Of a stretch of 64,000 nucleotides of DNA, positions 32,335 through 56,017 are shown piece by piece. Every line of letters starts with the position of its first letter. Position 1 is the stretch's first letter. The translations under genes were made by a program, and so were the position numbers. The DNA is from Escherichia phage phi92, in sequence record NC_023693.1; one strand, 5' to 3'. The notes under the pieces were generated by a model. The model saw only the letters and a list, made by a program, of their open reading frames with translations. It was not told where the DNA came from and made no database searches.

Positions 32335-35300
32335 TCAGTGACAAGTTGACCATGAACTACCAACATCGTAACCAGCAGTGAGAGGTACATTAAGATTGTA
32401 ATACTCACCAGCTTTATTAACAGCGATAGATGCTAATTCTCCAGCACGACTGTAGGCTGTAAACCAACCACCTTTCGGAGATTCATGTACGTTAGCCCAA
32501 ATCTTGCCAGTACGTTTCTCTTCCTCTTCTTTCCAGGCATTAACTTTATCCAAACATTCTTTATCAATTTTCTTTTGTTCCTCTGGATCATCAACTTGAG
32601 TCCAACCTAAAGATTCTTTAGAGAACCATTTAAAATGCACCAGATCACGAGTTACTTCAAGCTGTGCTTCATCGTGATATGCAATCATTTGTTGAACGAA
32701 TGACTTATTTTTCCAGTCATCAACAAAAAAGTCAACAGCTAATCCTTCTTCTTCGATAAGATCGTCGTAGATAACCATTGCTCTTTTTGCACAAATAACA
32801 CCACCACTCTGGAACAGAGAGTTAAGTATTGCGTGTGCAGATCGTGTAGGTACTTTCCTACCATCAATACCAAGAATGTATTTCTTACCTGTTTTAACCC
32901 AAAAATCATGCAGACGTTCTTTAAGAAGCGCAAGAGGTTTTGCAGCTTCCCAGAAAGCATCGTATACAAGCTGTCCTGTATACATATCACTACCTATAGT
33001 TTTTGCTACTTTTGCAGCTTGAGCACCATAAGTAATACCATACTTAACAGATTTAGCAGGGCTTCGTTCAAACTTACGACCAATAGTGTCAGAAATACGT
33101 CGAGCCATCATTGTATGAACATCATTAGGTTTTTCCAATAATAGAGCATTACAATATTCGTGTGGTTCCTGCTCGTACCGCCAACAATTCCCTGTAATCG
33201 TGATGCAGTCTTTCTGACGCATAACCCATGTACCGAGTTCTGTTTGTGGACACCAAACATCTTCTACACCCCATTCTTCAATAGTCAGACTTTGAACAGG
33301 GATGTGAGAGCGGTTAGCCAACGTTGCCACTTTTACTTTCTGGTCTTTCGTATTGAAGGCTACAGAAATATTACCCCCATGAACCAGGTATGAGGCAGTT
33401 AAGGCTGCTTCAAAAAGTTCTCCTGGGTTCTGCGCCCAGCGCCAAACAGGTTTTTGTTTATGTTTGTGCCAGTAACCATCCGCAATCAAAAAACCTTCCA
33501 AGAAAGCCACACGCTCGGCATGAGACATATTAACTACACGTTCTACCCACGGAACATCCCATTTACCTTGTTGAACAGAAGTTAAACTATTTACTTGATC
33601 TTGTTCCATGTTAAATGGAGCATTACAAATAATGTTATCTCCTGTGCAAAGCTCGGCAGTTGTTCTGACTTTAGGCACATAAGTATTCCCTGTACTACGA
33701 GTATTAACATACCAACGGTGATCTGCTGTTGCACGATAAGTATGGGATTTTCCTTTAATCTCAAACGTCTTACTATTTTTATAGAAGACCTTACCTTTTA
33801 CTTTAGTCCATTCTTTAAGTCCTGTTTCTGGGTTATATCCTAAGATTTCATCCCCTTCTTGTAGATCGTGATAACCAACCCAACCTTTACGGGTTAGTGC
33901 TTGTGCATCCATAGGTACACAGTAGTGTGATTCTATTTTTGCCTCAAGAGAATCAAAGTCATAACCAATTTGGAAGTATTTTGGAACTTCTACACCAAAT
34001 AAGTTACGCATTTCATATCCGTACAGAGATGTTACACGTGGGATATTTGCTACTAACCTATGTTTCATACGAGACGTAGCTGCATCACACGTTGCAGCAG
34101 GAGTTGGTATACGACCATCAGCCCTTACTGCTGCCAGATAACCTTTATCGTAATCCTCTTCATCTTCTTCCCAATCAGCACCACCTCCTAGAATAGAGTT
34201 CCTACGGTGTTTATACGTAAGATACTGCACAATCTGCGTAGCATAAGGAAACTTTTCACCTAGTGCTTCCAAGTTAGGACAAATATCTTTCTCTTGCCCT
34301 TTTGTAAAGGAAGGGTTAGTAAGCACTTTAACACCACGACCTTTAGCTTTAGCAATACGATCTCTTAGTTTCCATTCCAAAGTTTCTGGTGTGCACTCCA
34401 GATGATCACATCTGTCCTGGCAGAAGTTAGATGCCAATGTTTGATCAACATAGTCACGAATAGCTTTCTCCATTTGTGCTTCATCTTTCTTAATCTTAGT
34501 GCCAGATTTAAGAGTGATATCTTTATCTTTATATTCAGATGGACTCCAACCTAAACCAACTAACCAGTTTTTAATATGTGTCGTGTCGTCTAAAGTAGCA
34601 GGTACTGTAGGATCACAAATAGGTTCTTCTGCTGGAATAGGTAGTTTAAACTCTTTACCTAAAGCAAATAACCACCAACCATCTTCTTTTTGTACAAGTT
34701 CACCAGAATGTTTCTCTGCAAACTTTATCATGTTACTTGAAGGTTCACCATTCTTTTTAAACTGTAGTTTAGGTGGAATGAATGATTTCAAATAACCTTT
34801 AGTAGCAGGTTTAGGAGGTAGCACAGGTTCTGCCTCTAAACGACATGCTTCCATTCGAGCATCCAGATCACGAATATTATCTTCTGCTTGTTTCATATTG
34901 AAAGCAAAGCCACGGTGCTCTTGACGTGTAATAATATCCGCTACACGTTGTTCTAAGTTAAATGGTTCAGACCACTTATTATAATCACCCCACTCTTCCA
35001 TCAAATAACGGAACACTGCGGTGTTAGCTTTGTTATCGTAAATACAGTAATACAGCATATCTGCTGCAAATGTTTTAAATCTTTCAGTTTCAGGGATATT
35101 TTTTCTAAAATCAATTTTAACATCCCCTCCAGCTTTCTTAGATAACTCTGCCAGACTATGACCACCGAAGCGATCAGGGTTTAGTGTCTTACTTAAGATC
35201 ATAGTATCACAAATTTCAATGTTACTATTACCCCAAGTATTGTACTTAATACTGTAGTTGAGTTTAAAAAATAATTTAATTGCCAGTAAGTCAAAGTTAA

Positions 35301-35649
35301 TGATGTTATGTCCAACTACTTTGGTAATTTTATAGTTTGAATTACCTTTAAATTTACCTGTTCCATTTACAAAATCAGGAAAATCTTTAAGAGGGAAATG
35401 GGTATATTCTAAATGCTCATATTCCTCCAGTCGGTATTCATACTTTCCGTCAGTCTCAACATACGGACGACCATCGAAAAGATATTTATCACCATCATGG
35501 AAAGCAATAATCTCTCCAGTATCATGACTTTCGCACACAATACAGTGCATTGCAAAACTATCTTTTAAACGATATGGACTTGCCAAGTAATCTACACTTT
35601 CGTCATTAAGCAAGTTGTTACTTTCAATGTCGAAAGTAAAAGCTCCCAT
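32335..35649 (-). CDS. DNA polymerase, family A (T7-like) with 3'-5' exonuclease domain; intein-containing
   Basis: Exo I motif FDIES near the N-terminus; motif A-like GYDFDSLEAKIESHY; motif B-like RKFERSPAKSVKYGITYGAQAAK; NDVHT; a ~245 aa insertion between motif A and the following conserved segment. Confidence 0.75.
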   Translation of the reverse strand: MGAFTFDIESNNLLNDESVDYLASPYRLKDSFAMHCIVCESHDTGEIIAFHDGDKYLFDGRPYVETDGKYEYRLEEYEHLEYTHFPLKDFPDFVNGTGKFKGNSNYKITKVVGHNIINFDLLAIKLFFKLNYSIKYNTWGNSNIEICDTMILSKTLNPDRFGGHSLAELSKKAGGDVKIDFRKNIPETERFKTFAADMLYYCIYDNKANTAVFRYLMEEWGDYNKWSEPFNLEQRVADIITRQEHRGFAFNMKQAEDNIRDLDARMEACRLEAEPVLPPKPATKGYLKSFIPPKLQFKKNGEPSSNMIKFAEKHSGELVQKEDGWWLFALGKEFKLPIPAEEPICDPTVPATLDDTTHIKNWLVGLGWSPSEYKDKDITLKSGTKIKKDEAQMEKAIRDYVDQTLASNFCQDRCDHLECTPETLEWKLRDRIAKAKGRGVKVLTNPSFTKGQEKDICPNLEALGEKFPYATQIVQYLTYKHRRNSILGGGADWEEDEEDYDKGYLAAVRADGRIPTPAATCDAATSRMKHRLVANIPRVTSLYGYEMRNLFGVEVPKYFQIGYDFDSLEAKIESHYCVPMDAQALTRKGWVGYHDLQEGDEILGYNPETGLKEWTKVKGKVFYKNSKTFEIKGKSHTYRATADHRWYVNTRSTGNTYVPKVRTTAELCTGDNIICNAPFNMEQDQVNSLTSVQQGKWDVPWVERVVNMSHAERVAFLEGFLIADGYWHKHKQKPVWRWAQNPGELFEAALTASYLVHGGNISVAFNTKDQKVKVATLANRSHIPVQSLTIEEWGVEDVWCPQTELGTWVMRQKDCITITGNCWRYEQEPHEYCNALLLEKPNDVHTMMARRISDTIGRKFERSPAKSVKYGITYGAQAAKVAKTIGSDMYTGQLVYDAFWEAAKPLALLKERLHDFWVKTGKKYILGIDGRKVPTRSAHAILNSLFQSGGVICAKRAMVIYDDLIEEEGLAVDFFVDDWKNKSFVQQMIAYHDEAQLEVTRDLVHFKWFSKESLGWTQVDDPEEQKKIDKECLDKVNAWKEEEEKRTGKIWANVHESPKGGWFTAYSRAGELASIAVNKAGEYYNLNVPLTAGYDVGSSWSTCH
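33187..33921 (-). mobile_element. intein (aa 577-821 of the polymerase ORF) with one LAGLIDADG-like motif
   Basis: Starts with Cys (CVPMD...), TxxH block (TADHRW), LAGLIDADG-like FLEGFLIADGY, ends ...ITGN with +1 Cys (CWRY); removing it restores a contiguous motif A segment. Confidence 0.6.
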
Positions 35650-37930: not shown

Positions 37931-38200
37931 CTAAAATGATTCGTTTGTCTCCATAATATATTGCATTTCCAAATCTTCCATATGTTTCTTAAATTGGTAA
38001 ACAATTTCCGATGGGGAAATATCTATATCAAAAAGTTCTTTTGTACCAGAATAAAATCTAATACCATCAACAATAAGACCACCATAATAATCCCAATCAC
38101 TTTCTCGTGAGAAAGGATTAGGTTCTTCATAATAGTAATCTACTTCAACAATAATAGGTTCTTTATTATCTTGTTTATACTCAAAATCAAAAGTGTTCAT
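37931..38200 (-). CDS. hypothetical protein
   Basis: 89 aa acidic ORF. Confidence 0.4.
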   Translation of the reverse strand: MNTFDFEYKQDNKEPIIVEVDYYYEEPNPFSRESDWDYYGGLIVDGIRFYSGTKELFDIDISPSEIVYQFKKHMEDLEMQYIMETNESF

Positions 38201-39144
38201 TATAAATCCTCGATAAGCAGTCTGCGGGTTTCATTTAAATCATCAATATTGTAGTTATCTCTTACATACTTAGCAAGAGCCAATCCTTTCTCAATACAAA
38301 CATCAGGAGATTCGATTAAGTATTCTACAATATCTTTCCACTCTTTAACTGAATCAGCAAAGAAGATTAGATCTTTAAATTCTTCAGTATAGTAGTTCTC
38401 TCGTGGTGAACAAACGAGTGGCAAACCTTTAGCACCAGCTTCAAGAATTTTTAAATTACTTTTGGCATTATTAAAATGATTATTTACTAATGGAGCTATG
38501 GAGATTTGATGACCATCGTATGCTTCCATATAACACTCATAAGGACGAATACCTTCATAAACACAACCTGGTTGAATATCTTCTTTAATTTGCAACCATT
38601 GAGCACTACTTAACTCTTCGTGATCTCTACGAAATCCACATAAAGTTAAATCTTTACCAAAATCAGGAAGAATTGCTAAATCATGTTTATGTGTTTCACT
38701 TCCCGCCCAAACTAGTGGACTTTTAGAATAACGGTCTTTAGTAAGAACAAACTGTCCTTCATCAAAAGGTAATCCGTTAGGCACAATATGTACATTATCA
38801 TTGTATTGGCTTAATTCAACCTTTAATGCCGGAGTTGTTGTGGTTACAAGATCGCTTCTTTCAAGGAACCATTTTAGGTCATCTCGGATTTGATTTTCAA
38901 ATAGTCCTTCAAGCATATGCCCTTCAGGAATAATTAAAGAATCATCCAGATCCATTACCAATTTAAACCCAATTTGTTTAAGAGCCAGGAAACCTGGCTT
39001 TCCACGTGTTGGTACTCCATTGAACACAAAAATATTATGCTTAGGATTAATGGTCAGTTTGCGTTTATATGGCAAAATGATTCTATGAAAATCACATACA
39101 CTATACTTTTCATTTCCGCGTGTGTCAAGAATAATATTAGGCAT
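38200..39144 (-). CDS. putative glycosyltransferase, GT-B fold-like (paralog 1)
   Basis: C-terminal KSNLKILEAGAKGLPLVCSP resembles the nucleotide-sugar-binding helix of GT-B enzymes; clear paralogy with the adjacent gene (CDFHRI.., WAGSETH.., LKILEAGAKGLP). Confidence 0.4.
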   Translation of the reverse strand: MPNIILDTRGNEKYSVCDFHRIILPYKRKLTINPKHNIFVFNGVPTRGKPGFLALKQIGFKLVMDLDDSLIIPEGHMLEGLFENQIRDDLKWFLERSDLVTTTTPALKVELSQYNDNVHIVPNGLPFDEGQFVLTKDRYSKSPLVWAGSETHKHDLAILPDFGKDLTLCGFRRDHEELSSAQWLQIKEDIQPGCVYEGIRPYECYMEAYDGHQISIAPLVNNHFNNAKSNLKILEAGAKGLPLVCSPRENYYTEEFKDLIFFADSVKEWKDIVEYLIESPDVCIEKGLALAKYVRDNYNIDDLNETRRLLIEDL

Positions 39145-39155
39145 ATAACTCCTTG

Positions 39156-40169
39156 TTAAAGACTTTCAATAACTTGACGACGCAGTTCATTGGCATCTGC
39201 AAGATTATAATTAAGACGAACGTGTTCTGCAAGCATCATACCACGATCTTCTGTGTATCTAGGATTCCTAATTAGCTTGACAACTTCATAGTGCCAAGAT
39301 GCTTTAGAGTCTGCATAGATAACAGCCTTTGCATCTACCGGATTGAAGTACGGCAGCACAGGAGAACAGATAATAGGAAGACCCTTTGCACCTGCTTCCA
39401 AAATCTTCAAATTGCTTTTACAGTTGTTGAAGTCATTATCTACCAGAGGAGCAATTGCAATACTATGACCGTCATACACAGACATATACTCACCTAAATT
39501 TTTAATAGCTGGTTTATACTGTGCATTTGGAATTTTACGTTTTATTTTAACCCACTCCGCAGTAGTTAGATACTGACTATTATTTCCAACAGGTGCAGAA
39601 GGATACACTTCATACCCTGCAATTGTCAATAGTGTATCATCAAATGTATTAGCTACAAGAGATAAATCAGGCTCATGGCTTGCTCCTCCAGCCCAGATAA
39701 TAGGTGTGTCAGAACTACGGTCTTTTGTCAAAGTAAATTGACCTTCGTCGTAAGGTAGTGCGTTTCTAATTACGACAACATTACGATTTAAATGACGAAT
39801 TTTGTAAGCTAGGTATTCTGTTGTTACAGTAACAACATCTGCTAACTTAACCATCTCTACAATAGTCTTTGAATGATTAGTAAATACGCCAGCCATATAA
39901 TGTTCAGGATTAAGTGAATAAAAGTCATCTAAATCAACAATAATCTTAACACCTTGTGCCTTCAGGCGTTTAACCTCGTCTGCTCCACGAGAATACACTC
40001 TATTAAAAACTAAAACGTCTTTCTTAGGTTTAAATGTATTTCCAGCAAATGGCATTACAATACGATGGTAATCACAACCACTGCCTAACTTATTATCACA
40101 CTTAAGTACAGGAGTATTAGGATTTACCATATTTTTGAGCCTCCTCATAAGAGATAAAAGTTTTACCAT
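39156..40169 (-). CDS. putative glycosyltransferase, GT-B fold-like (paralog 2; start uncertain)
   Basis: Shares CDYHRI, IWAGGASHEPDL and LKILEAGAKGLPIICSP blocks with 38200-39144; an internal ATG at 40130 aligns better with the paralog N-terminus. Confidence 0.4.
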   Translation of the reverse strand: MVKLLSLMRRLKNMVNPNTPVLKCDNKLGSGCDYHRIVMPFAGNTFKPKKDVLVFNRVYSRGADEVKRLKAQGVKIIVDLDDFYSLNPEHYMAGVFTNHSKTIVEMVKLADVVTVTTEYLAYKIRHLNRNVVVIRNALPYDEGQFTLTKDRSSDTPIIWAGGASHEPDLSLVANTFDDTLLTIAGYEVYPSAPVGNNSQYLTTAEWVKIKRKIPNAQYKPAIKNLGEYMSVYDGHSIAIAPLVDNDFNNCKSNLKILEAGAKGLPIICSPVLPYFNPVDAKAVIYADSKASWHYEVVKLIRNPRYTEDRGMMLAEHVRLNYNLADANELRRQVIESL

Positions 40170-40803
40170 TGCGAAGATCCTCCAGAGATTGTTTATATTG
40201 TTCCCAGTTTACACCAATCCCCTGTTCTTTCTCTTCTTTTGACAGATTCGCAAAAGGTAAAGGATTGTCTCCAAACACATCATCAGGATGGATAAACGCC
40301 ATAATTCGAATAGGACATGGCACGCCTTGAATACCTCGGTTCAAACCTGCCAGTGGAACGCGATGAATCCACTCTGCATCTTCATATCCATAACCGTGGG
40401 TGTATGAGCGGAAATAGCCAGCTTTCTCAATAACTGCACGGGAATACATACCAAACTGGCACATACCTAGTTCCCAAATAACCACTTCCCCTTCAATACC
40501 TTTTACTTTATCTTTAAAGTATTCAGGCATACCAAAGAAATCCCAACCATTTTCCTTCGCCTGTTTTACAAAATATGTTTCCCAACCTGGAACAACAGGA
40601 TAACAATCATCATCAAAAATAAACCAGTAGTCATACCCTTCATCATAAAACTTTTTCATCAGTTCATTACGGGCATATGCAACACCTTTTCGTTCACGAT
40701 CATACTGTACAACAAAAGTAGCATTAGGATCAGTTACAAGATAATCTTTAAGAGGACGCTTACCTACAGTAATAACACCAACACCAATTTTTGTATTTTC
40801 CAA
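40117..40803 (-). CDS. glycosyltransferase, GT-A fold-like (DxD)
   Basis: YWFIFDDDCYP (DxD motif) and HGYGYEDAEW; TTG start with AAGGAG RBS. Confidence 0.5.
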   Translation of the reverse strand: MENTKIGVGVITVGKRPLKDYLVTDPNATFVVQYDRERKGVAYARNELMKKFYDEGYDYWFIFDDDCYPVVPGWETYFVKQAKENGWDFFGMPEYFKDKVKGIEGEVVIWELGMCQFGMYSRAVIEKAGYFRSYTHGYGYEDAEWIHRVPLAGLNRGIQGVPCPIRIMAFIHPDDVFGDNPLPFANLSKEEKEQGIGVNWEQYKQSLEDLRNGKTFISYEEAQKYGKS

Positions 40804-40812
40804 AATAACTCC

Positions 40813-41376
40813 TTAAATAATTTTATTCATGTCTTGACAATGTAAAAGGTGTGAAACAGCTTTTCTAGGATCATCATTACCTAAACGGTATGTGTGAAAT
40901 AAATATAACCCACGTAGTAAACCTAGCCTTTTATTGTTAGCGTGCAATGCTTTAGAGAAAATTATATCAAACTGTATTGATCTTTCCTCAAAAGGAATTT
41001 CATTCCACAGACTCTTACGAAAGAGAAGAAAGAATCCTGCTAAGATAGCATCTGTAGGTACTTCCTCTATTGAGTTTCCCCATTCTAGATGTGCTCTTTT
41101 TGCAATCTCAATGTGGTGTAATATATTCGGATCTTCACTTCTTTCATTATTAAATAATTGATATGTTGATCCCAATCTGTTACAAGATGCACCAAGAACA
41201 TCAAAATCAGGATTTGAACGGACAATTGATTCCAGCCAAGCAGGTTGTTCTGGAAGAAGAAACATTGTATCAATGTCTCTTAGGCAAATCCAACTATCTT
41301 CTGGTAAGACACTTATTGTGTCATTGATACCTTTTCCAATATCTCCAGAAAGATAGGGAGTTATGTGAAATATCAT
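40813..41376 (-). CDS. hypothetical protein, possible glycosyltransferase-like
   Basis: 187 aa; contains CLRDIDTMF (DxD-like); weak evidence. Confidence 0.3.
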   Translation of the reverse strand: MIFHITPYLSGDIGKGINDTISVLPEDSWICLRDIDTMFLLPEQPAWLESIVRSNPDFDVLGASCNRLGSTYQLFNNERSEDPNILHHIEIAKRAHLEWGNSIEEVPTDAILAGFFLLFRKSLWNEIPFEERSIQFDIIFSKALHANNKRLGLLRGLYLFHTYRLGNDDPRKAVSHLLHCQDMNKII

Positions 41377-41433: not shown

Positions 41434-41628
41434 CTATTGATTACGTTTTGCGAGTTCCATTTGGATAGCTAAACTGTGATCTCGTGCTTCCATATATTCT
41501 TTATATGTTTCATTAAGATGATCACGACAAACATCACGCAGTTTAATCAGTTTATCTGTAGGGATACCACTAAGATCATCCCAAGATTTTACAACTTCAC
41601 CAGTATCATTGATCCCAATGGTTTTCAT
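41434..41628 (-). CDS. hypothetical protein
   Basis: 64 aa ORF. Confidence 0.35.
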   Translation of the reverse strand: MKTIGINDTGEVVKSWDDLSGIPTDKLIKLRDVCRDHLNETYKEYMEARDHSLAIQMELAKRNQ

Positions 41629-41884
41629 CTACAACCTCCTTAATTGCTACAGCACAGTTTTTGCAGATACACTGCCCTTTACCTTTAGAAATCTGGATGT
41701 AAGGTTCATTTTCATTTTCGCCCTTACGTGAGTCATATATTACAGAATTGAAGCACACAACGCAAATATTTTTTAAGATTGTATACTTATCAACTTTCTT
41801 TTTTGTTTTAAAGTTAACTTCAATAACATCAGCCATCAGTGTAACACTCCCAGTATGTTGCTTTGTGACATAACCATAGAACAT
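41606..41884 (-). CDS. zinc-ribbon protein
   Basis: 92 aa with CVVCFN...CICKNC cysteine pairs. Confidence 0.4.
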   Translation of the reverse strand: MFYGYVTKQHTGSVTLMADVIEVNFKTKKKVDKYTILKNICVVCFNSVIYDSRKGENENEPYIQISKGKGQCICKNCAVAIKEVVDENHWDQ

Positions 41885-42114
41885 TCAACATTATCGTGAC
41901 TACGTGAAAAACGTTCCCAAACATCTTCATCGACTCGTAAAGCTATACAAGGATAGACGTTATCATTGATCATTTCAATTGAATAAACATCCACATTGTC
42001 TTCGTCTTCGATGAACATCATTGCAAACTGTTCTAAATGTTTCCTAATGTAATGTACATCCTCTTCTGTAAGACCAATAACAAGATAACTTGCAACGATA
42101 ACGCCATCTTTCAT
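41836..42114 (-). CDS. hypothetical protein
   Basis: 92 aa acidic ORF. Confidence 0.4.
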   Translation of the reverse strand: MKDGVIVASYLVIGLTEEDVHYIRKHLEQFAMMFIEDEDNVDVYSIEMINDNVYPCIALRVDEDVWERFSRSHDNVECSMVMSQSNILGVLH

Positions 42115-42124
42115 CTATATCTCC

Positions 42125-42634
42125 TTAGCGATAGAATTGATGTTCTTTGTAGCGGTACACTAGAACCATATCTTTTTCCCAGTGTGCTCTTATTGTAGAT
42201 TTTTTAAAGTATAATGCTCCTTTTGTAATATCTAATGCAATTCGTAATTCTGGAAAATGCGTATCGAGATAAAGTAGACGTTCTGCTATAGCCTTAGCTT
42301 CCTTCCACTTATCACGTTCCATAACGTTGAATGTCTTTGTGTAAGAGAATTGTCCTTTTTGAAACAAAACTTCTTTTATAGTATCAGGGAAATATGAATC
42401 TCTAGCCCTATTCAATACTACATTACCAACAGCAGACATACCGCGCTTTCCTTGATTACGACTTTCTGCATAGATTGCACAAGCTAATAGATTTTCTTTA
42501 CTATCACGCTTTGTACACTTGTGAACTACTTTAGCAGTTTTTACGTTTGCAGCTTCGGCTTGCGCCACAACAGGTGTAAATGTAAAAGCAGTTAAGGATA
42601 GTAACGCAATTGCGACAAAGGTTTTTATTGACAA
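42125..42634 (-). CDS. secreted cell wall hydrolase, SleB/Hydrolase_2-like
   Basis: N-terminal signal peptide (MSIKTFVAIALLSLTAFTFTPVVAQA) and LLACAIYAESRNQGKRGMSAVGNVVLNRA, which matches the SleB-type hydrolase motif. Confidence 0.55.
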   Translation of the reverse strand: MSIKTFVAIALLSLTAFTFTPVVAQAEAANVKTAKVVHKCTKRDSKENLLACAIYAESRNQGKRGMSAVGNVVLNRARDSYFPDTIKEVLFQKGQFSYTKTFNVMERDKWKEAKAIAERLLYLDTHFPELRIALDITKGALYFKKSTIRAHWEKDMVLVYRYKEHQFYR

Positions 42635-42665
42635 ACTTGCCTCCTATTTTGTTAAACGAACTTTT

Positions 42666-42694
42666 ATTGTAACACAGAAGAGGCTGTTTTGCAA
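42666..42694 (-). promoter_or_regulatory. sigma70-like promoter (-35 TTGCAA, 17 nt spacer, -10 TACAAT)
   Basis: On the - strand, TTGCAA (42689-42694) and TACAAT (42666-42671); RBS GGAGG and start at 42634. Confidence 0.55.
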
Positions 42695-42697
42695 GTG

Positions 42698-42716
42698 GAG
42701 GGGGATTATCCCCCTC
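42698..42716 (-). terminator. GC-rich hairpin, possible terminator downstream of 42727-43329
   Basis: GAGGGGGA-tta-TCCCCCTC; no clear T-run on the - strand, so termination is uncertain. Confidence 0.35.
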
Positions 42717-43381: not shown

Positions 43382-43978
43382 TTACTCGAACCAATCGTCG
43401 CCAGCGCCAAACGCTTTAACTACATCGTAAATATCAAGCCCAGCTTTACCCACACCATACGCTTTCAGTTTCCATTCGCTATCTTCTCGCACCAGGGAGG
43501 CAACGTGGCAAATGGTGTTACCTGCAAGTTCTGGAGCCAAGAAGTCAAAGTCCAGCAGTTCAACATTACGTTCATCATCGAAGATTTTAAGGAAACCTTC
43601 GGTAGCGTGACCAAGGCGTTTCTTACCCGTTTCGTCATCAATAGTAATTACGAATGCAATTTCCTGTGCTTCAGCAGAGATATTATCCAGTGTAACATCA
43701 ATCTGCTCCATTTGTCCTACACCGTCACGAACATCTTCACCTGCAAAAGTAGAACGTTCAGGATCAAATTTCTGTGCGTAGCATACCAGGTGGCGAGGAG
43801 ACAACAGTTCCGGCAGACCAGATGCATTGTGTCGGCAAATCAGAGCACTAACATCCAGATCCAGTTTTTCGTTAGATTTCCAAGAGAATTCCAGACGAAT
43901 GCGTTTCAGTGCTGGTGCGATCTTTTTCAGGGAAACTTTTTCGCTAGAACCTTTTTTCAGGGAAATTTTCTGAGTCAT
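43382..43978 (-). CDS. terD: TerD-family stress protein
   Basis: N-terminal ISLKKG...VSLKK, DLDVSA, FVITIDD and EWKLKAYG blocks match the TerD domain as I recall it; AAGGAG RBS. Confidence 0.6.
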   Translation of the reverse strand: MTQKISLKKGSSEKVSLKKIAPALKRIRLEFSWKSNEKLDLDVSALICRHNASGLPELLSPRHLVCYAQKFDPERSTFAGEDVRDGVGQMEQIDVTLDNISAEAQEIAFVITIDDETGKKRLGHATEGFLKIFDDERNVELLDFDFLAPELAGNTICHVASLVREDSEWKLKAYGVGKAGLDIYDVVKAFGAGDDWFE

Positions 43979-44015
43979 AATTTATTATCTCCTTTGTTGT
44001 TAATTTACGTTGTCT

Positions 44016-44043
44016 ATTTTACTAATCTTTTCTACAAAGTCAA
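44016..44043 (-). promoter_or_regulatory. sigma70-like promoter (-35 TTGACT, 16 nt spacer, -10 TAAAAT)
   Basis: On the - strand upstream of terD; TTGACT is the complement of 44038-44043 and TAAAAT of 44016-44021. Confidence 0.5.
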
Positions 44044-44050
44044 GCGTTTT

Positions 44051-44845
44051 TTACGCTTTTGCTCCGAATTTTTTAACCCACTCACCAAACTCTTCGGATA
44101 ACAGTTTATCGTAAAGTTCTTCGTCAGACAAGGACAAATCTGCAATACCGATAAAATCAACATTATCGTATTCTTTTGCCAAGTCTTTCAGGAATTTAAA
44201 GTTTGCATTACCTACACCAACCATAAACCAGTAAACAGGAGTGTTGCGGTGTTTGTTCAGCAAACTACGTACTGCTGAAGTATCCATGTTCTCCCCGTCA
44301 GTTTGGAAGAAAATCATTGCAGGAGTACGATCAACTTGTGCATCAGTATCTACAACCTGTTCTACAACAGTACGTGTAACTTCTACACGTTCTTTTTTAC
44401 CAGTTAGTTTAGCAAGGAAACCCTTAGCCGGAACTTCTTCATACTCAACGACTTCGCGTGTAATATTTTTCATAGGTACACTACCGAAGTATGTATCATA
44501 GATCTCTTGCATTACTGGGGCATAAGCTGTACCACCATTGATGCAAACATTAGACATACAAGAGCCGACATAATCATCATATACATCAGCCGTTGCGGGA
44601 GGCAGTTCAAAAGAAGAACTATTGAAAGCCCACATGTCAATCTGTGCATTATCATCAAATTTCATACCAAACGGCAGCAGCTTACCTACAAAATCACTAA
44701 CAGTGCCATCACGATACAGCTCACACATACTACCCGAAATATCTAAGGCGCTACCGACACGAAGAACAACATCGTTAATCTTTTTCTTACGCAGAGATAC
44801 GGTAAGAGTTTCTTGACGTTTTTTAAGACTGATTTTATTGGACAT
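44051..44845 (-). CDS. von Willebrand factor A domain protein (TerY-like)
   Basis: MIDAS motif DISGSM, downstream GGT and FQTDGE; TerD-like N-terminal ISLKK...VSLRK segment. Confidence 0.55.
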   Translation of the reverse strand: MSNKISLKKRQETLTVSLRKKKINDVVLRVGSALDISGSMCELYRDGTVSDFVGKLLPFGMKFDDNAQIDMWAFNSSSFELPPATADVYDDYVGSCMSNVCINGGTAYAPVMQEIYDTYFGSVPMKNITREVVEYEEVPAKGFLAKLTGKKERVEVTRTVVEQVVDTDAQVDRTPAMIFFQTDGENMDTSAVRSLLNKHRNTPVYWFMVGVGNANFKFLKDLAKEYDNVDFIGIADLSLSDEELYDKLLSEEFGEWVKKFGAKA

Positions 44846-44846
44846 A

Positions 44847-45116
44847 TTATTTCTCCTTTCTGAGTGTAATGTTAGTAACTTCTAAATCCACTTCTACCAT
44901 TTCTGTATCATATGAAATACAGCTAAGTTGACCTCTTTGTGAACCGTTCAGACACATTGCTTGGTTTGTATTAACCTTAATAAACACTAAGTTTCTGAAC
45001 GTATCTAAACCAGCATCTTGATAGGCAACATAATATACAAATGTATCACCTGCGTCAAGTTCTCCAAAACATTTAGGTTCATCTGATTCGTCGTCTTTGA
45101 TATTAAATTTAAGCAC
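44847..45116 (-). CDS. hypothetical protein
   Basis: 89 aa ORF. Confidence 0.4.
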   Translation of the reverse strand: MLKFNIKDDESDEPKCFGELDAGDTFVYYVAYQDAGLDTFRNLVFIKVNTNQAMCLNGSQRGQLSCISYDTEMVEVDLEVTNITLRKEK

Positions 45117-45672
45117 TATCTTCTCCTTTACCTACTTTCAAGCCTAAATAGAAAGCCTCTCTAGTGATTTTTTGCAACTCGTTTAAAGAGATAGTTACAA
45201 CTAAATCATCTTCAATTTCTAGTTTTGAGTCTTCTTCTGTCTCAATGCAAGTATTATGCACTTTGTGGTAAGGATTGTCAACACGTTTAAATTTATTATT
45301 TTCAGTGCTGAAGAAGCAATCTGGATCTTCTTCCCCATCACCCCAACCCTGGTTAGGATCTTCTTCAGATCTTTCTGTTGGGATCTCACCTGTAAAGTGT
45401 TCTTCTAATACCAGAGCAATCCCATCTCCAAGATCGGAAGAGAACATCAAATTACAAACTTCTTCCCAAGGCATAGACCACTTAAATCTTTTACGATTGC
45501 CATGTTTATCTTCTTCGTTAGAGAAAACACTACCATAGCTATCATAATTCCCATACATCTCTTCGACAACCTTACCACCTTTCAAAAGAAATAGGTAGCA
45601 AGGAGAGCCATCGAAAGAGGTAGAGAGAGCAGCATTACCAGACTCTTTGCACAAGAAACTAAAACACCCCAT
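45109..45672 (-). CDS. hypothetical protein
   Basis: 187 aa acidic ORF. Confidence 0.4.
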   Translation of the reverse strand: MGCFSFLCKESGNAALSTSFDGSPCYLFLLKGGKVVEEMYGNYDSYGSVFSNEEDKHGNRKRFKWSMPWEEVCNLMFSSDLGDGIALVLEEHFTGEIPTERSEEDPNQGWGDGEEDPDCFFSTENNKFKRVDNPYHKVHNTCIETEEDSKLEIEDDLVVTISLNELQKITREAFYLGLKVGKGEDSA

Positions 45673-45872
45673 TATACACCAGCCTTAAGATCAATTAAAG
45701 CCAAAGTTGTTTCAGAGTGTGTTTGCTCGTCTACAGGCGCAGTCATATGATAATACAAAAAATCTTCGGCATCATACCAATCTGATTCTTGACCTTGTTT
45801 CCAACCATCAATGAAAGCATCTTCCATAATGGTTTGCAATTCTTCACGAGTTAAGTGAATATCTTTACTCAT
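45672..45872 (-). CDS. hypothetical protein
   Basis: 66 aa ORF with start/stop coupled to neighbours. Confidence 0.35.
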   Translation of the reverse strand: MSKDIHLTREELQTIMEDAFIDGWKQGQESDWYDAEDFLYYHMTAPVDEQTHSETTLALIDLKAGV

Positions 45873-46105
45873 TACACATTCTCCTCTTTTACCAATTCCA
45901 TCGTTGAATTGTCAAAACCATCTTTAGAAGAATAGGTATAGACAGAACGTAGTTCTCGCAGGACAGTGAATACATTAGGATCATCTAACCAAGCATCCTG
46001 GAGGAGAACATAACGATCTTCATTGTCATACTGAACAGCAATCATAGAACCAGACAGTTTGTAAATTTTAATATTCATAATATATTTCTCCTTAAAGTAG
46101 ACCAC
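45872..46105 (-). CDS. hypothetical protein
   Basis: 77 aa ORF. Confidence 0.35.
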   Translation of the reverse strand: MVYFKEKYIMNIKIYKLSGSMIAVQYDNEDRYVLLQDAWLDDPNVFTVLRELRSVYTYSSKDGFDNSTMELVKEENV

Positions 46106-47195
46106 GTTTAACAGTTTGAATCATACCATCTTCAAGAGATTGCACTTCTTGAATGTAATCAATACGGGCAGCACGGGCTTCAGTGTTGATTCGGTTAGTT
46201 TCTTCCAACATTTTAACTAAGTTTTCTTGATCACGACGTAATGTTTCAATATCCAATACTTGACGATTAGCAAGTTGTGTAGCTTCAATTTGGTTTTGTG
46301 CAGCCAGATCACTACCCATTGCAATAGCAGCATTAAATTCATTCAGTACATTGTTCTGTGTATCGGCTGCTTTCTTCTGGCGTAGACTTTCAATATACAT
46401 AGAAAAGTTTGCAGAGTAAGCAGGGATAACATTATTCACAATATTACGGGCTGATCGCATCAAACTTGCAGATACTTTCTGCATACTTTGTACACGTGGC
46501 CCCATCTGAACACACAGTAAGCGTAAGGCTTTCAGGTCTGCAATACGAATTTCAAGCAGATCCATAGTATCACGAGTACGCTGACGCTCTTCTACGTCAT
46601 TTTCAGGCAGTGTATTAAGGCGAATTTCTTCTTTTTCATAAGTAGCTGTTAGAAGCTCTATATCTCTGTTTAAGCTAAGAGCATATTTTGCAATAGCCTC
46701 TTCTAAACGTTGCAGATATCGTAAAGAATCTTCTTCTTTTTTCAAGTCTGTTTGGAGTGTCTTTACCAAACCTTCAATACGGTTATTAATGGTGTCAAAT
46801 TCTCCAAACAAATCTTCTTTCATACCTAAAACTTTTTTAACTAGTTTACCTAAACCTTTAGATTGTTTAATAGAGTTAGGATCAAGTTGCTTTGCTTGCT
46901 TAATAAGTGCAGTTAAACGTTCACTCATTTCATCTCCCTGAGATGAACGCTGGTGTTTAAGCACTTCAGCATTAAGGTTACGAAGAGTAAGTCCTGCATC
47001 AGCACCAACCTGTTCAATCTCTTCACGCGACATTGGAGGCAGCATTTGTACAGGTCGTGCAACAGCAGGGGCATATACAGGGCTTGCATCCATAGCACTT
47101 GGAGCAAACAAAGACTTACTTTTTTCTGTTGTTGCCGTGAATACACTCATTTCAGACGGTTTGCTTTTTACGGCACTGATAAAAGGACTGGACAT
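46092..47195 (-). CDS. telA: TelA-like (toxic anion resistance) protein
   Basis: 367 aa, highly alpha-helical; C-terminal VLDIETLRRDQENLVKMLEETNRINTEARAARI resembles the conserved TelA/YceH C-terminal block; GGAGGA RBS. Confidence 0.5.
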   Translation of the reverse strand: MSSPFISAVKSKPSEMSVFTATTEKSKSLFAPSAMDASPVYAPAVARPVQMLPPMSREEIEQVGADAGLTLRNLNAEVLKHQRSSQGDEMSERLTALIKQAKQLDPNSIKQSKGLGKLVKKVLGMKEDLFGEFDTINNRIEGLVKTLQTDLKKEEDSLRYLQRLEEAIAKYALSLNRDIELLTATYEKEEIRLNTLPENDVEERQRTRDTMDLLEIRIADLKALRLLCVQMGPRVQSMQKVSASLMRSARNIVNNVIPAYSANFSMYIESLRQKKAADTQNNVLNEFNAAIAMGSDLAAQNQIEATQLANRQVLDIETLRRDQENLVKMLEETNRINTEARAARIDYIQEVQSLEDGMIQTVKRGLL

Positions 47196-47263
47196 TCAAT
47201 TTCCTCCATATTCTTTAGTAAATGGTGATACCTCTGTACCACCATCATAACACAAATTAAGTA

Positions 47264-48133
47264 TTAAACAAACATATCTAAATAATTTGTAGTAATAAAT
47301 GCTCCATCTGCTTCCAGATTAACATAACCAGTAGCATTAGTGGTTAAGAAATCCAGATCGAAGGACTCTTTAACACCCCGTACCTCAACACGAGAGATAT
47401 CGAATACAGGTAGTGTAACAGCCTCTTCGTGCAATACCGTACCTTTGTAGGTTGCCTTAATGATAAACTTGATATTACCTGTTCCAGCATCATATAAAAC
47501 ACTTTCAAACCCTTTGAGAGTATATTTATCACCAGAGGTGAAGTGCAAAGTTGCTTTGTTTACAGTACGGTTCTTACGAGGAGTTCCTTTCACACGTTTA
47601 TGATCACTACGTCTTTTGCATTTAGGAATGAATACAAACGATACACTCTCAAGAAAGGTATCAACATCAAGGATTTTAATATCCTCTGTTGCAGCAAATT
47701 TTGAAGTAGTTGCATCAAAATGCTTTTCCCTGCGATCATACATAAAGATATCAAACCGATCTTCTAAATCAAACCGATCTTCTAAATCAAACAAATTATG
47801 CAGTTTAATTTCAGAATGCTTGCACATTGCAGCAACCTTAAACTCTTCAAAACGTGGGTGTTCTACAAGTTCTTCAAGTTTTACACCAAAGACAGTATAT
47901 TGTTTCGAAGTTTTTTCTGGTGTTGGCATTACAGAAGCATAATCACCGATTGCGCTCTTAAAGCAAAATTGTTCTTGACCTGTATTTTTACCAACGAATT
48001 TACAGTATTCGTCATCGTGCATACTTTCCTGGGTAGTACCAACAAACTCAAAACCATCTTTATTCTTCTCAAGGATTTCTTGATTAAAGATCCAACCTTC
48101 CAGGCGATATACTTTACCAACTTCTAGTTTCAT
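47264..48133 (-). CDS. hypothetical protein (contains an 18 bp tandem duplication)
   Basis: 289 aa; internal DLEDRFDLEDRF encoded by the tandem repeat at 47751-47786. Confidence 0.4.
   Translation of the reverse strand: MKLEVGKVYRLEGWIFNQEILEKNKDGFEFVGTTQESMHDDEYCKFVGKNTGQEQFCFKSAIGDYASVMPTPEKTSKQYTVFGVKLEELVEHPRFEEFKVAAMCKHSEIKLHNLFDLEDRFDLEDRFDIFMYDRREKHFDATTSKFAATEDIKILDVDTFLESVSFVFIPKCKRRSDHKRVKGTPRKNRTVNKATLHFTSGDKYTLKGFESVLYDAGTGNIKFIIKATYKGTVLHEEAVTLPVFDISRVEVRGVKESFDLDFLTTNATGYVNLEADGAFITTNYLDMFV
47751..47786. repeat. perfect 18 bp tandem duplication (TCAAACCGATCTTCTAAA x2, plus a partial third copy)
   Basis: Positions 47751-47768 and 47769-47786 are identical; in frame within the CDS. 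Confidence 0.8.
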
Positions 48134-48168
48134 CTGTTTCTCCTTCTTATTTAATCTGTATTAAATTA

Positions 48169-48774
48169 TTAACGACGACGTGAGCTACTAAAACTACGTT
48201 TCGACGAAGAATAACTTTTCGAAGACTTACTATAAGAGCTAATAGGGCTTGAGTAAGACTTACGAGCAGAGTAATCACTATTCACTTTCGTTGTTGATGG
48301 GCGTGAATACGTTTGTACACTTTGCTGCTTAATTGTGTTTTGTTTAGTGGTTGTATATGTATTTCCTTGTTTATCATAAAAACTATGCTTTTGTGTTGTA
48401 TATGCTTTACTGTTAGTTGTAGGAGCAGCGTTGTTATTAATAATTGTTGTGTTGCTACCACCATCTCTATAACCGCCACCGCCACTATTACCACTCAACA
48501 TATGACCAAGAAGCATACCTGTAGCAAACTCACCTACACCAGAAGAACCACTGCCGCCTCCTTGCACAACAACTGTTGAAGGTTGTGCAGGTGCTGCTTG
48601 AACAACTTGAGGTGCAGGCTGATTTACATATTGTTCATCTACCATCTGATTTGGTGTTTGTTGGTAACGTTGATTTTGTACATTTTCAGAATCATCACAA
48701 CCTACCAGCAATGCACTACCTAAAACAACTGCAACAATAAAAGATTTAATGTTTTTCATTTGTAACCCTCTCAT
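48169..48774 (-). CDS. putative lipoprotein with low-complexity Ser/Tyr-rich C-terminus
   Basis: Signal peptide with lipobox-like LLVGC; Gly-rich stretch; C-terminal SYSSPISSYSKSSKSYSSSKRSFSSSRRR. Confidence 0.45.
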   Translation of the reverse strand: MRGLQMKNIKSFIVAVVLGSALLVGCDDSENVQNQRYQQTPNQMVDEQYVNQPAPQVVQAAPAQPSTVVVQGGGSGSSGVGEFATGMLLGHMLSGNSGGGGYRDGGSNTTIINNNAAPTTNSKAYTTQKHSFYDKQGNTYTTTKQNTIKQQSVQTYSRPSTTKVNSDYSARKSYSSPISSYSKSSKSYSSSKRSFSSSRRR

Positions 48775-48952
48775 TTAAAGTCTCAACACAATTTTTAAAA
48801 TCCCTAGAGAAACAATACATCTGTTCTCCGTTCCTGTTGATAGTAATTGTATGGTTATCAATATATGTTGTCAAGATAAAAATCAAACAAAACAACCCTA
48901 GAGCAAAACAAATATTTTCAAACAGAATCCAAAGAACACGTAAAACCACCAT
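48746..48952 (-). CDS. small membrane protein
   Basis: 68 aa with an N-terminal hydrophobic helix. Confidence 0.35.
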   Translation of the reverse strand: MVVLRVLWILFENICFALGLFCLIFILTTYIDNHTITINRNGEQMYCFSRDFKNCVETLNERVTNEKH

Positions 48953-48967
48953 CAGATCACCTCAACA

Positions 48968-48985
48968 AAGCCCCCGAAGGGGCTT
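48968..48985 (-). terminator. GC hairpin, possible terminator downstream of terC
   Basis: AAGCCCC-cgaa-GGGGCTT, weak T-tract. Confidence 0.4.
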
Positions 48986-48991
48986 AATGAA

Positions 48992-49969
48992 TTAAGCAAC
49001 AGTCTGGTCTTCTTTTTCAGGGAAGATTAAACTTGCAACAACACCCAACCCAAGAGTACCTAACACAATATACATACTGATCGTCGGATCAATGTGTGCT
49101 GGCAGGAAACTGGCTTTTGCGTGCAGAGTTTCTGCAAACGGGTGATACATCAGTTTTACACCCACAAACACCAGGACTACGATAACTGCTTTCTCCAGAT
49201 GAACCAAATATTTCAGTGCAACACTAAGGACAAAGAACAGAGCACGTAGACCTAAGATTGCACAGAGCATCGAAGAGAACACTAGCAGAGGTTCTTGTGT
49301 CACTGCAATCACTGCTGGAACAGAGTCTACTGCAAAGATTACGTCAACCATTTCCATTACAAACACACAAACCAGAGCCGGAGTTGCTACACGAACACCA
49401 TTTTTGATTGTGAAGAACTTCTCACCATCCATCTGATCAGATACAGGGAACAGCTTACGAACAATGCGAGTAGCCCAGTGTTTAGAGTAATCAACTTCTG
49501 CATCATTATCTCCAGCGAATACCATTTTAGCCGCACAGAAAAGGATGACAGCACCGAAGAAGATATTAACATACCAGCCCAAACTCAACAAGTAAGTACC
49601 TACTGCTACAAACACACCTCGGAAGACAATCGCACCTGCAATACCCCAAAGTAGAATCTTGTGCTGCAAGTGTGTGCTTTTAATACCAAAACTTGCGAAT
49701 ACTGCTACAAATACTACTAAGTTATCTACAGAAAGAGATTTCTCCAACACATACCCACTCAAGAACAAGCTCGCAAAATCAGCACCGTGTTGGAAGTATA
49801 CAAAACCATAGTAGGCTAATGATACCCCAATCCAGAAAATTGACCAGCCAATTGCAGATTTAAATGAAATTTCTTTGTTTTCTCTGTGTCCAAAGAAATC
49901 AATACAAATCGACAAGACTAAAATACCCACTAAAACAACCACATCAATAATTGGGAAACCCAGTTGCAT
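48992..49969 (-). CDS. terC: TerC-family integral membrane protein
   Basis: Multiple TM helices and the characteristic EKSLSVDNL segment. Confidence 0.6.
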   Translation of the reverse strand: MQLGFPIIDVVVLVGILVLSICIDFFGHRENKEISFKSAIGWSIFWIGVSLAYYGFVYFQHGADFASLFLSGYVLEKSLSVDNLVVFVAVFASFGIKSTHLQHKILLWGIAGAIVFRGVFVAVGTYLLSLGWYVNIFFGAVILFCAAKMVFAGDNDAEVDYSKHWATRIVRKLFPVSDQMDGEKFFTIKNGVRVATPALVCVFVMEMVDVIFAVDSVPAVIAVTQEPLLVFSSMLCAILGLRALFFVLSVALKYLVHLEKAVIVVLVFVGVKLMYHPFAETLHAKASFLPAHIDPTISMYIVLGTLGLGVVASLIFPEKEDQTVA

Positions 49970-54329: not shown

Positions 54330-54800
54330 TTAGTCAGATTCCCAAATGTTGTCTTTCTTAATCCACATTCGTTGATTATCTGAACCTCTATAACGTTTCG
54401 TTGTTGGTTGATTCATATCATACTTACCATCTATCACTATGTCAACCAGTTTTTTAATTTTTTCTGGAATTTCCTCAAAAAGATATCCTGTATATAAGAC
54501 AATATCTTTTTTGTTTCCAAAACAATCTCTTACCTTCTCAAGAACATACTCTACAGTGTCAATGTTCTCTTTGTCAAGAGGTTCACCACCTAAAACTGTT
54601 AATCCTTTAATGAAAGGTCGAGATAAATCTTTCAAGATAAGATCTAATGTTTCAGTAGTGAACTCTTGTCCGTAGTTATACGACCAGGCTTTCTGGTTAA
54701 AGCAGCCACGGCAACCGTGGCTACAACCGCTCACCCACAAAGAGCATCTTACACCGTCACCGTTGAGCATGTCAACAGGTTCATATCCGGCGTAATTCAA
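54330..54800 (-). CDS. nrdG: anaerobic ribonucleoside-triphosphate reductase activating protein (radical SAM)
   Basis: Cys cluster CSHGCRGC (CxxxCxxC), 156 aa, immediately downstream of nrdD with ATGA overlap. Confidence 0.7.
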   Translation of the reverse strand: MNYAGYEPVDMLNGDGVRCSLWVSGCSHGCRGCFNQKAWSYNYGQEFTTETLDLILKDLSRPFIKGLTVLGGEPLDKENIDTVEYVLEKVRDCFGNKKDIVLYTGYLFEEIPEKIKKLVDIVIDGKYDMNQPTTKRYRGSDNQRMWIKKDNIWESD

Positions 54801-55738: not shown

Positions 55739-56017
55739 CATTATGTTCAAAGTGGCTCGCAAGGCCACTCCCGCACCATTACGTGCTGCTGCATGTCACC
55801 ATGCAGATCAGACTATATCTTCATGCTTAAAGCATGTCTACCATTTGGGGTGTCATAGGCTTACACCCTACGCTGCTACATTCATCACAGCTAGTCGTTA
55901 GGCATTTCGTAACAGTACCCCCTTCTTCTGTGTTGGGAGTTCTGTTACGTTTAGCACGGGATTGTCTCGTTGAGAGTTCCCCCGTTTAGGCAGATTTTAC
56001 ATGAGCAGTTATAGTTT
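55739..56017 (-). ncRNA. group I self-splicing intron (ORF-less) interrupting nrdD
   Basis: 279 nt with no ORF separating two in-frame nrdD halves; exon 1 ends in U and the intron ends in G; paired elements present (ACGACTA/TAGTC P7-like, CTGCATG-GTGA-CATGCAG hairpin with GNRA loop, CATGC-TTTAA-GCATG hairpin); resembles my recollection of the T4 nrdD (sunY) intron core. Confidence 0.65.

Follow-up and report, generated by a model that had tools for sequence, protein, structure and literature searches.

A 64,000-nucleotide stretch of the genome of Escherichia phage phi92 (NC_023693.1; the whole stretch is called the window here, and position 1 is its first letter) carries on its minus strand a gene for a SleB-type cell wall hydrolase, and we propose that this enzyme is exported as an accessory muralytic enzyme whose synthesis is gated by its own promoter. 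What is new is that the promoter DNA is predicted to hide the ribosome site of the hydrolase gene on transcripts arriving from upstream, and we found no description of this promoter/anti-Shine-Dalgarno arrangement in the searchable papers. We put the probability of the whole explanation, including the accessory role and the translational gate, at about 0.55; the part that concerns the identity of the enzyme and its export signal is highly probable. The gene itself has been seen before. About 53 deposited phage genomes, each about 146 kb in size, match the 2-kb stretch around it at 98-99% identity; they are Justusliebigvirus phages (phi92-like, Stephanstirmvirinae), with Antha, muut, Paula and PaulScherrer among them, and in those records the open reading frame (ORF) is labelled 'putative cell wall hydrolase' or 'endolysin'. 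Because orthologues of Phi92_gp170 at 98-99% identity are deposited in about 53 Justusliebigvirus genomes, the gene is the already known and annotated cell wall hydrolase of phi92-like coliphages. An earlier reading of this DNA made without database searches (the sequence-only reading) had missed both this annotation and the overlap of the promoter with an anti-Shine-Dalgarno element. Further away, the protein is 75% identical to its Phapecoctavirus orthologue and about 40% identical to those of rV5-like phages. Our literature search found no transcriptome of a Stephanstirmvirinae or Vequintavirinae phage, and no functional study of this protein family in phages. The features of the locus are as follows.

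42125..42634, minus strand: hydrolase coding sequence (CDS), 169 aa, SleB/CwlJ-type (Hydrolase_2), Phi92_gp170 orthologue (from ORF reading, Pfam, PHROG and fold)
42464..42466, minus strand: codon of Glu57, the predicted catalytic glutamate in the YAESRN motif (from alignment to the Glu of SleB YGESRG)
42557..42634, minus strand: codons 1-26, predicted Sec signal peptide MSIKTFVAIALLSLTAFTFTPVVAQA with predicted cleavage after AQA (read from the sequence)
42571..42618, minus strand: h-region of the signal peptide, codons 6-21 of the hydrolase, unusually conserved (pairwise identity)
42632..42634, minus strand: TTG start codon, kept in 13/13 orthologous loci (alignment)
42639..42645, minus strand: Shine-Dalgarno (SD) sequence AGGAGGC, the 3' strand of the predicted inhibitory helix (sequence and minimum free energy (MFE) folds)
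42666..42694, minus strand: sigma70-type extended -10 promoter (scan, and conservation in 13 loci), with -35 TTGCAA at 42689-42694, TGt at 42672-42674 and -10 TACAAT at 42666-42671, at 17-nt spacing
42678..42692, minus strand: 5' strand of the predicted translation-blocking helix (MFE folds, duplex energies and control promoters)
42698..42716, minus strand: GC-rich hairpin GAGGGGGA-UAA-UCCCCCUC where the upstream gene ends, immediately next to the -35 (sequence and fold)

We found that the hydrolase matched the Pfam family Hydrolase_2 (PF07486) over profile positions 2-100 of 100, with an E-value of 6.5e-20 and 72.1 bits (cut-off 27), and that it also matched PHROG 938, which is named 'endolysin'. 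The only solved relatives detected by sequence were the SleB catalytic domains 4F55 and 4FET, at about 23% identity, and the YAESRN motif of the hydrolase aligned on YGESRG of these structures. We take the glutamate of the SleB motif to be its catalytic residue. An AlphaFold2 model of the hydrolase was then built on 21 homologues, and its predicted local distance difference test score exceeded 90 for most of residues 40-169 and stayed under 50 in residues 1-32. A Foldseek search of this model against the PDB returned SleB only (4fet and 4f55), with a target-normalised template modelling (TM) score of 0.72-0.76 and a root-mean-square deviation of 2.4-2.7 A. The SleB-type hydrolase named by the sequence-only reading was thus borne out by the Pfam match, the PDB sequence matches and the fold match, and the peptidoglycan-hydrolase fold whose absence was to speak against that reading is present in the model as the SleB fold. 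Glu57 is invariant both in the 21 homologues of alignment A1 and in the 7 of alignment A4, and it is joined by 18 further residues that are invariant over the four phage lineages in A4. Judging by homology to SleB, the most likely activity of the hydrolase is that of a lytic transglycosylase acting through Glu57. The N-terminal peptidoglycan-binding domain of SleB proper was not found in the protein, which has one Pfam domain and, at residues 27-45, a short linker.

The N-terminus of the hydrolase reads MSIK-TFVAIALLSLTAFTF-TPVVAQA/EAAN (the slash marks the predicted cleavage point) and shows an n-h-c pattern: the n-region is positive, the h-region spans 15 residues, and around the cleavage point stand Pro (-6), Ala (-3 and -1) and Glu (+1). 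Here the signal peptide was judged by rule-based reading with the (-3,-1) rule, and on this reading the classical Sec-type signal with an AQA site that had been claimed earlier holds. The rV5-like orthologue carries an unrelated but classical signal, (M)KIKIFAIILSAFLSLPVVA/A, and so does the T5-like homologue, MKAALLLIAALTYSFNSHA/T; the homologue of PAK_P1 (Pakpunavirus) has an N-terminal transmembrane segment with no obvious cleavage site. Since such N-termini are present in the four phage lineages compared in A4, export is, as far as the alignments tell, a conserved property of this phage subfamily. The published record on the signal is divided: the homologue CB7_83 of Pectobacterium phage CB7 was described with a signal peptide and with toxicity on expression in E. 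coli (PMC7344957), and this conflicts with another paper on related coliphages, in which signal peptides were not found (PMC10698182). Mean pairwise identity was 0.84 in the h-region, 0.74 in the catalytic core, 0.70 in the mature protein and 0.41 in the c-region, which is the most variable part. The 24 nt that encode LTAFTFTP are identical in four lineages, with zero synonymous change, and the predicted anti-SD helix described below stops short of this coding stretch. We also summed hydrophobicity and insertion energy over the segment, and these sums failed to separate a cleaved signal from a signal-arrest-release (SAR) anchor.

The promoter in front of the gene, TTGCAA-17-TGtTACAAT, agrees with the consensus at 9/12 positions and has TG at -15/-14. 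A promoter scan of the 10-kb region found 38 promoter-like sites as compared with 34 in shuffled sequences, so the match alone is not above chance. We therefore turn to the orthologous loci, which came from a Phapecoctavirus genome and eleven metagenomic contigs with proteins 60-78% identical to the hydrolase and gave a 13-sequence alignment. The TTG of the -35, the 17-nt spacing and TGnTAnAnT were invariant in 13/13 loci, with the surrounding intergenic sequence drifting. Read from the alignment, this conserved block gives a good phylogenetic footprint for a sigma70 promoter of the extended -10 type, and we accept the promoter on this conservation despite its chance-level match. The claim that the hydrolase has its own sigma70-like promoter therefore stands; the description of that promoter as 'near-consensus' carries no weight by itself. 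Transcription is predicted to start near 42659. The gene starts with TTG, a start codon that 3/38 annotated CDS have in the 26 kb around the gene in phage muut, and AGGAGG lies 5 nt upstream of this codon. The GC-rich hairpin at 42698-42716 has no clear U-tract and is probably a weak terminator or an RNA end structure. It was found at the same position in the folded orthologues, and is weak in L010. A covariation check of this hairpin returned zero compensatory changes, and MAFFT set its stems out of register, so we claim only its presence.

Three conserved oddities stand upstream of the coding sequence, namely a non-consensus -35 (TTGCA), a C/U-rich spacer (AGCCTCT and variants) and the TTG start. 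In the predicted fold of RNA that reads through from upstream, GCAAA (42688-42692) pairs with the start-codon region UUUGU (42631-42635), and GCCUCUU (42678-42684) pairs with the SD, (A)AGGAGGC. We folded the read-through RNA of the window and of four orthologues, and in each the GC hairpin was followed by a two-part long-range helix, with z-scores of -3.3 to -5.3. Pairing between the SD and the spacer was present in the MFE structure of 12/13 loci. Column-wise covariation was replaced by per-sequence duplex energies, since the register of the anti-SD shifts between orthologues. The duplex between a 20-nt promoter arm and the translation-initiation region had an energy of -10.8 to -19.5 kcal/mol in 12 orthologues (L017 was left out of this calculation, but shows the SD pairing in its MFE structure), as compared with -5.5 +/- 2.5 kcal/mol for random 20-mers of the genome; the empirical fraction of random 20-mers at or below the observed energy was 0.0003-0.027. 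Seven other promoter-bearing intergenic regions of the window gave +0.2 to -6.9 kcal/mol against their own initiation regions. Moreover, the 5' arm varies between lineages (GCCTCT, CCCTCCTT, TCCTCCT, CCCCTT), yet it stays complementary to the fixed SD. The leader made from the own promoter is essentially unstructured, at -2.5 kcal/mol.

The helix arm at 42678-42692 lies between the -35 and the -10 and upstream of the predicted transcription start, so transcripts from the own promoter lack the blocking strand. Read-through transcripts are predicted to be untranslatable because their SD and start codon are paired with the promoter arm. According to this model, only own-promoter transcripts should be translated, and read-through transcripts should be blocked. 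The rV5-like orthologue does not have this design: an intrinsic terminator immediately precedes it, its SD is weak, its start codon is GTG, and it overlaps rIIA. On this ground the predicted occlusion mechanism would be specific to Stephanstirmvirinae-type phages, and the rV5-like arrangement is a different route to low expression. In Vequintavirus EduardKellenberger (L012, 3946-4495), no promoter was seen between the terminator and the orthologue, and the rIIA-rIIB start is overlapped by 4 nt. We also considered a phage-wide class of TTGCAA-N17-TAnnnT promoters and rejected it, as there is one other correctly placed intergenic case in the window. This site, TTGCAA-17-TATACT at 710-738 on the plus strand, is upstream of a structural-block ORF (753-1169), and the duplex between its promoter arm and the initiation region is weak, at -6.9 kcal/mol.

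In its pharokka-style annotation, Antha has the hydrolase as the only endolysin, with Rz/Rz1 adjoining terL and no holin. The 'sole endolysin' reading that follows from this annotation was rejected when we found an unannotated T4-type lysozyme. Phage Mt1B1_P17, of Phapecoctavirus, has a 166-aa 'baseplate hub + tail lysozyme' just upstream of phoH, at 118858-119358 (L008:18858-19358), and the syntenic ORF of Antha (PP925826.1, 135570-136070; L005:35570-36070), annotated 'hypothetical protein', matched Phage_lysozyme PF00959 with an E-value of 3.4e-12. Residues 6-165 of this 166-aa protein align end to end on residues 2-161 of T4 lysozyme (E about 1e-52), the motifs EG...DTEG...TVGIGH are present, and an N-terminal hydrophobic segment is absent. 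We take these motifs to carry Glu11, Asp20 and Thr26 of T4 lysozyme. The T4 gene-e-type lysozyme is kept at >=95% identity in 54/54 matching Justusliebigvirus records, outside the window, under labels that vary between hypothetical protein, baseplate hub, lysozyme and endolysin. The suggestion that the hydrolase is the endolysin of the phage is thus not borne out as stated, with a T4 gene-e-type lysozyme in every genome of the genus.

The same pairing was found in other lineages. T5-like phage IrmaTschudi has an annotated holin-endolysin pair and spanins about 24 kb from its signal-peptide SleB-like gene. The T5 enzyme of that type is an L-Ala-D-Glu peptidase endolysin that has been characterised by experiment. 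All genera of Vequintavirinae keep the SleB-like gene, and the second enzyme varies, being either an M15 peptidase or lysozyme-like. Two lytic proteins, PF00959 and PF07486, have likewise been reported for the sister genus Phapecoctavirus (PMC10793346). Because a vertically conserved, exported SleB-like enzyme accompanies an exchangeable canonical endolysin, the SleB-like enzyme is probably not the principal lysis enzyme.

Taken together, we propose that the Sec pathway exports this single-domain SleB/CwlJ-family muralytic enzyme to the periplasm of infected E. coli, where signal peptidase I would probably release it after VVAQA. Being Sec-exported, the enzyme would reach the peptidoglycan without a holin, and there it would act as an accessory enzyme that weakens or remodels the sacculus, assisting lysis but not executing it. 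Lysis itself would be carried out by the cytoplasmic T4 gene-e-type lysozyme, the Rz/Rz1 spanins next to terL and a holin. Synthesis of the hydrolase would be held low and promoter-specific by the TTG start, the extended -10 promoter with its weak -35, and the anti-SD placed in the -35 and spacer: read-through RNA from the upstream Ter operon would fold and hide the ribosome site, and own-promoter RNA, lacking the blocking strand, would be translated.

The genes around the hydrolase were examined for lysis functions. With Pfam, PHROGs and inspection of the neighbouring ORFs, we found no holin, spanin, other lysis gene or transmembrane protein near it. The position outside a holin-endolysin lysis cassette, which had also been claimed, was confirmed, the neighbours being Ter-cluster genes, small ORFs and glycosyltransferases. 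Directly upstream is a 200-aa protein without assigned function, followed by the Ter cluster; three small ORFs lie downstream. The coordinates are as follows.

41434..42114, minus strand: three small co-oriented ORFs (92, 76 and 64 aa), abutting or overlapping the hydrolase gene and each other, syntenic in relatives
43382-49969, minus strand: stress cluster of Ter ('tellurite resistance') genes, found upstream of the hydrolase in every relative examined (annotation)
43382-43978, minus strand: TerD
44051-44845, minus strand: vWA-TerF
46092-47195, minus strand: TelA
48992-49969, minus strand: TerC

The three small ORFs probably share a transcription unit with the hydrolase; they matched only PHROGs of unassigned function, and no Pfam family above threshold. 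Downstream of them come four glycosyltransferase-like genes, then primase/helicase and DNA polymerase. The glycosyltransferase-like genes are consecutive (38200-41376, minus strand), one of them has a weak, below-cut-off match to PF20691 (TET-associated glycosyltransferase), and they may relate to DNA or surface modification. Beyond the Ter cluster, up to about 54300, are genes with orthologues annotated as phosphatase, phosphoribosyltransferase (PRTase)-like and hydrolase. This order is kept in the metagenomic relatives. The label 'early region' for this part of the genome would follow from its gene content, a replication and metabolism block.

We weighed the accessory role against other functions of the hydrolase. 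It is doubtful, in our view, that the enzyme remodels the periplasmic peptidoglycan during the latent period for a purpose other than lysis, such as superinfection exclusion, cell enlargement or spanin accommodation, or joint action with envelope-stress genes (Ter, or rIIA/B in rV5). Such a role would agree with the conservation of the gene alongside canonical endolysins, and not in place of them, in several large virulent phage lineages, with its constant position among non-structural genes (after the TerC/TelA/TerD/vWA cluster in Stephanstirmvirinae, overlapping rIIA in Vequintavirus), and with a low-expression design made of a TTG or GTG start and a weak -35 or a placement straight after a terminator. 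However, gene adjacency is loose in these phages and its own promoter sets the hydrolase apart from the Ter genes; an exported muralytic enzyme made at a low level fits a lysis-assisting role equally well, and for the non-lysis function direct evidence is nil. We consider it unlikely that the hydrolase is the principal endolysin, delivered by Sec like Lys44 of Oenococcus phage fOg44, preloaded in the periplasm and set to work once the membrane loses its energy, with the T4-like lysozyme redundant or used otherwise. The 'endolysin' label is carried by PHROG 938 and by many GenBank records, the gene is a core gene conserved while the second enzyme is swapped between lineages, the predicted translational gate is of the same kind as that of the T4 lysis enzyme gene, and the toxicity of CB7_83 in E. 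coli would also fit. These points are set against the complete T4 gene-e homologue in all 54 matching genomes, the coexistence of the T5-like homologue with a separate annotated holin-endolysin cassette, and the lack of a holin or antiholin among the neighbours.

The N-terminus could alternatively be an uncleaved SAR or signal-anchor segment that holds the enzyme at the inner membrane until depolarisation frees or activates it, as in P1 Lyz or R21, which seems to us rather improbable. The h-region is conserved more than the catalytic domain, the simple-sum insertion energy is marginal and similar to that of SAR domains, and the Pakpunavirus homologue, with its transmembrane segment, would suit an anchor. 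Nevertheless, behind the h-region stands a canonical Pro(-6)...A-x-A site, the number of glycines in the segment is zero as compared with 5 in the SAR examples used, the signals of the rV5-like and T5-like homologues are short and of a typical cleavable type, and small residues at -3/-1 are kept in most homologues though the c-region otherwise varies. A virion-associated lysin that penetrates the peptidoglycan at entry, a role the sequence-only reading had offered, is very improbable. Only the generic fact that phages carry muralytic entry enzymes speaks for it, whereas the Sec signal sends the protein out of the cytoplasm, the site of virion assembly, the gene sits in the replication/metabolism block on the strand opposite to the structural genes, and the SleB-domain protein gp447 of jumbo phage PA5oct was not found in the PA5oct virion proteome.

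Several points weigh against the accessory, promoter-gated enzyme that we prefer. Orthologue L016 has no helix in its MFE structure. The RNA pairing is a prediction, and a purine-rich SD would pair with any C/U-rich stretch; the 13 loci are related by descent and, in the alignment, show no strict column-wise compensatory changes. The read-through transcripts are likewise a prediction. Because the conservation of the h-region is unusually high (0.84, as compared with 0.70 in the mature enzyme), this segment could be a retained anchor rather than a discarded signal, and the signal peptide is called from the rule-based reading. Furthermore, pipelines routinely label the hydrolase gene 'endolysin', and which enzyme lyses the cell is assigned here from sequence comparison.

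Beyond this locus, we tentatively offer a wider idea, to which we give well under even odds: at least four lineages of large virulent phages (phi92-like, rV5-like, T5-like and PAK_P1-like) may keep an exported, holin-independent SleB-type lytic transglycosylase as a core gene beside a canonical endolysin, and it would serve not for bulk lysis but for controlled, low-dose remodelling of the sacculus while infection proceeds, for example in superinfection exclusion or in an envelope preparation linked to the Ter/rII membrane-stress genes, with dose and timing in phi92-like phages set by the promoter/anti-SD element.

Other features of the window and of the records searched were noted in passing. 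A group I intron (Rfam RF00028, 70.6 bits, full-length model) at 55789-56063 on the minus strand splits the gene for the large subunit of anaerobic ribonucleotide reductase into ORFs 54797-55768 and 56009-56875; nrdD of Antha is uninterrupted, at 600 aa. The DNA polymerase I ORF (32335-35649) encodes 1104 aa as compared with 859 aa in phage muut, and the difference is one in-frame insertion of 245 aa (residues 577-821; window 33187-33921, minus strand). The insertion begins with Cys and ends with ...ITGN, hence it is intein-like, and no Hint/intein domain was found in it by Pfam at E<=1e-3; a metagenomic relative has a polymerase of 1099 aa. Over the hydrolase locus and the lysozyme gene, which were the stretches compared, three unannotated GenBank records named 'Campylobacter phage A150/A145/C3' (MG065639, MG065645 and MG065656; C. 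jejuni) share 97-99% identity with phi92-like coliphages, and their C. jejuni host assignment looks doubtful.

These results bear on annotation. Pipelines give the name 'endolysin' to the SleB-like enzyme, and some of the records concerned list the actual T4-e-type lysozyme as 'hypothetical' or 'baseplate hub'; such labels are misleading for the study of lysis and for enzybiotic mining alike. In several families of coliphages of the therapeutic type, a predicted Sec-exported lytic transglycosylase consistently occurs together with a canonical endolysin. If the promoter/anti-SD overlap is true, it would extend the gate of T4 gene e to another subfamily, another promoter type and another enzyme, and it would explain the non-consensus -35, the conserved spacer and the TTG start.

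Compared with known systems, the hydrolase gene is the same gene as that of the 'putative cell wall hydrolase SleB' of phAPEC8 and as CB7_83/CR3_087 of Vequintavirinae, including the published signal peptide and the position in the replication module away from the lysis genes. With SleB of Bacillus (4F55, 4FET), a germination-specific lytic transglycosylase, it has in common the fold and the Glu motif. Unlike Bacillus SleB, the phage enzyme has no N-terminal peptidoglycan-binding domain and is single-domain and CwlJ-like, and its substrate must be ordinary Gram-negative peptidoglycan because the host has no muramic-delta-lactam cortex. The enzyme resembles Lys44 of fOg44, P1 Lyz and R21 in that a muralytic phage enzyme would reach the wall without a holin pore. 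However, those three are sole endolysins in lysis cassettes, and the phi92 enzyme occurs beside a canonical cytoplasmic endolysin and lacks lysis genes as neighbours; in addition, its N-terminus looks cleavable rather than SAR-like.

The closest parallel for the predicted gate comes from T4, whose genes e, soc, 49 and I-TevI have an inhibitory helix with its 5' strand encoded in the promoter region, so that only promoter-proximal transcripts are translated (PMC3014915). As in T4 gene e, the SD and the start codon of the hydrolase gene are predicted here to be sequestered by a helix whose 5' strand is encoded in the promoter region. Unlike T4 gene e, which has the T4 late TATAAATA promoter, the phi92 gene has a sigma70 extended -10 promoter, its predicted long-range helix closes a loop of about 35 nt in which the -10 lies, and the enzyme under control is an exported one of the SleB type, not a T4-type lysozyme.

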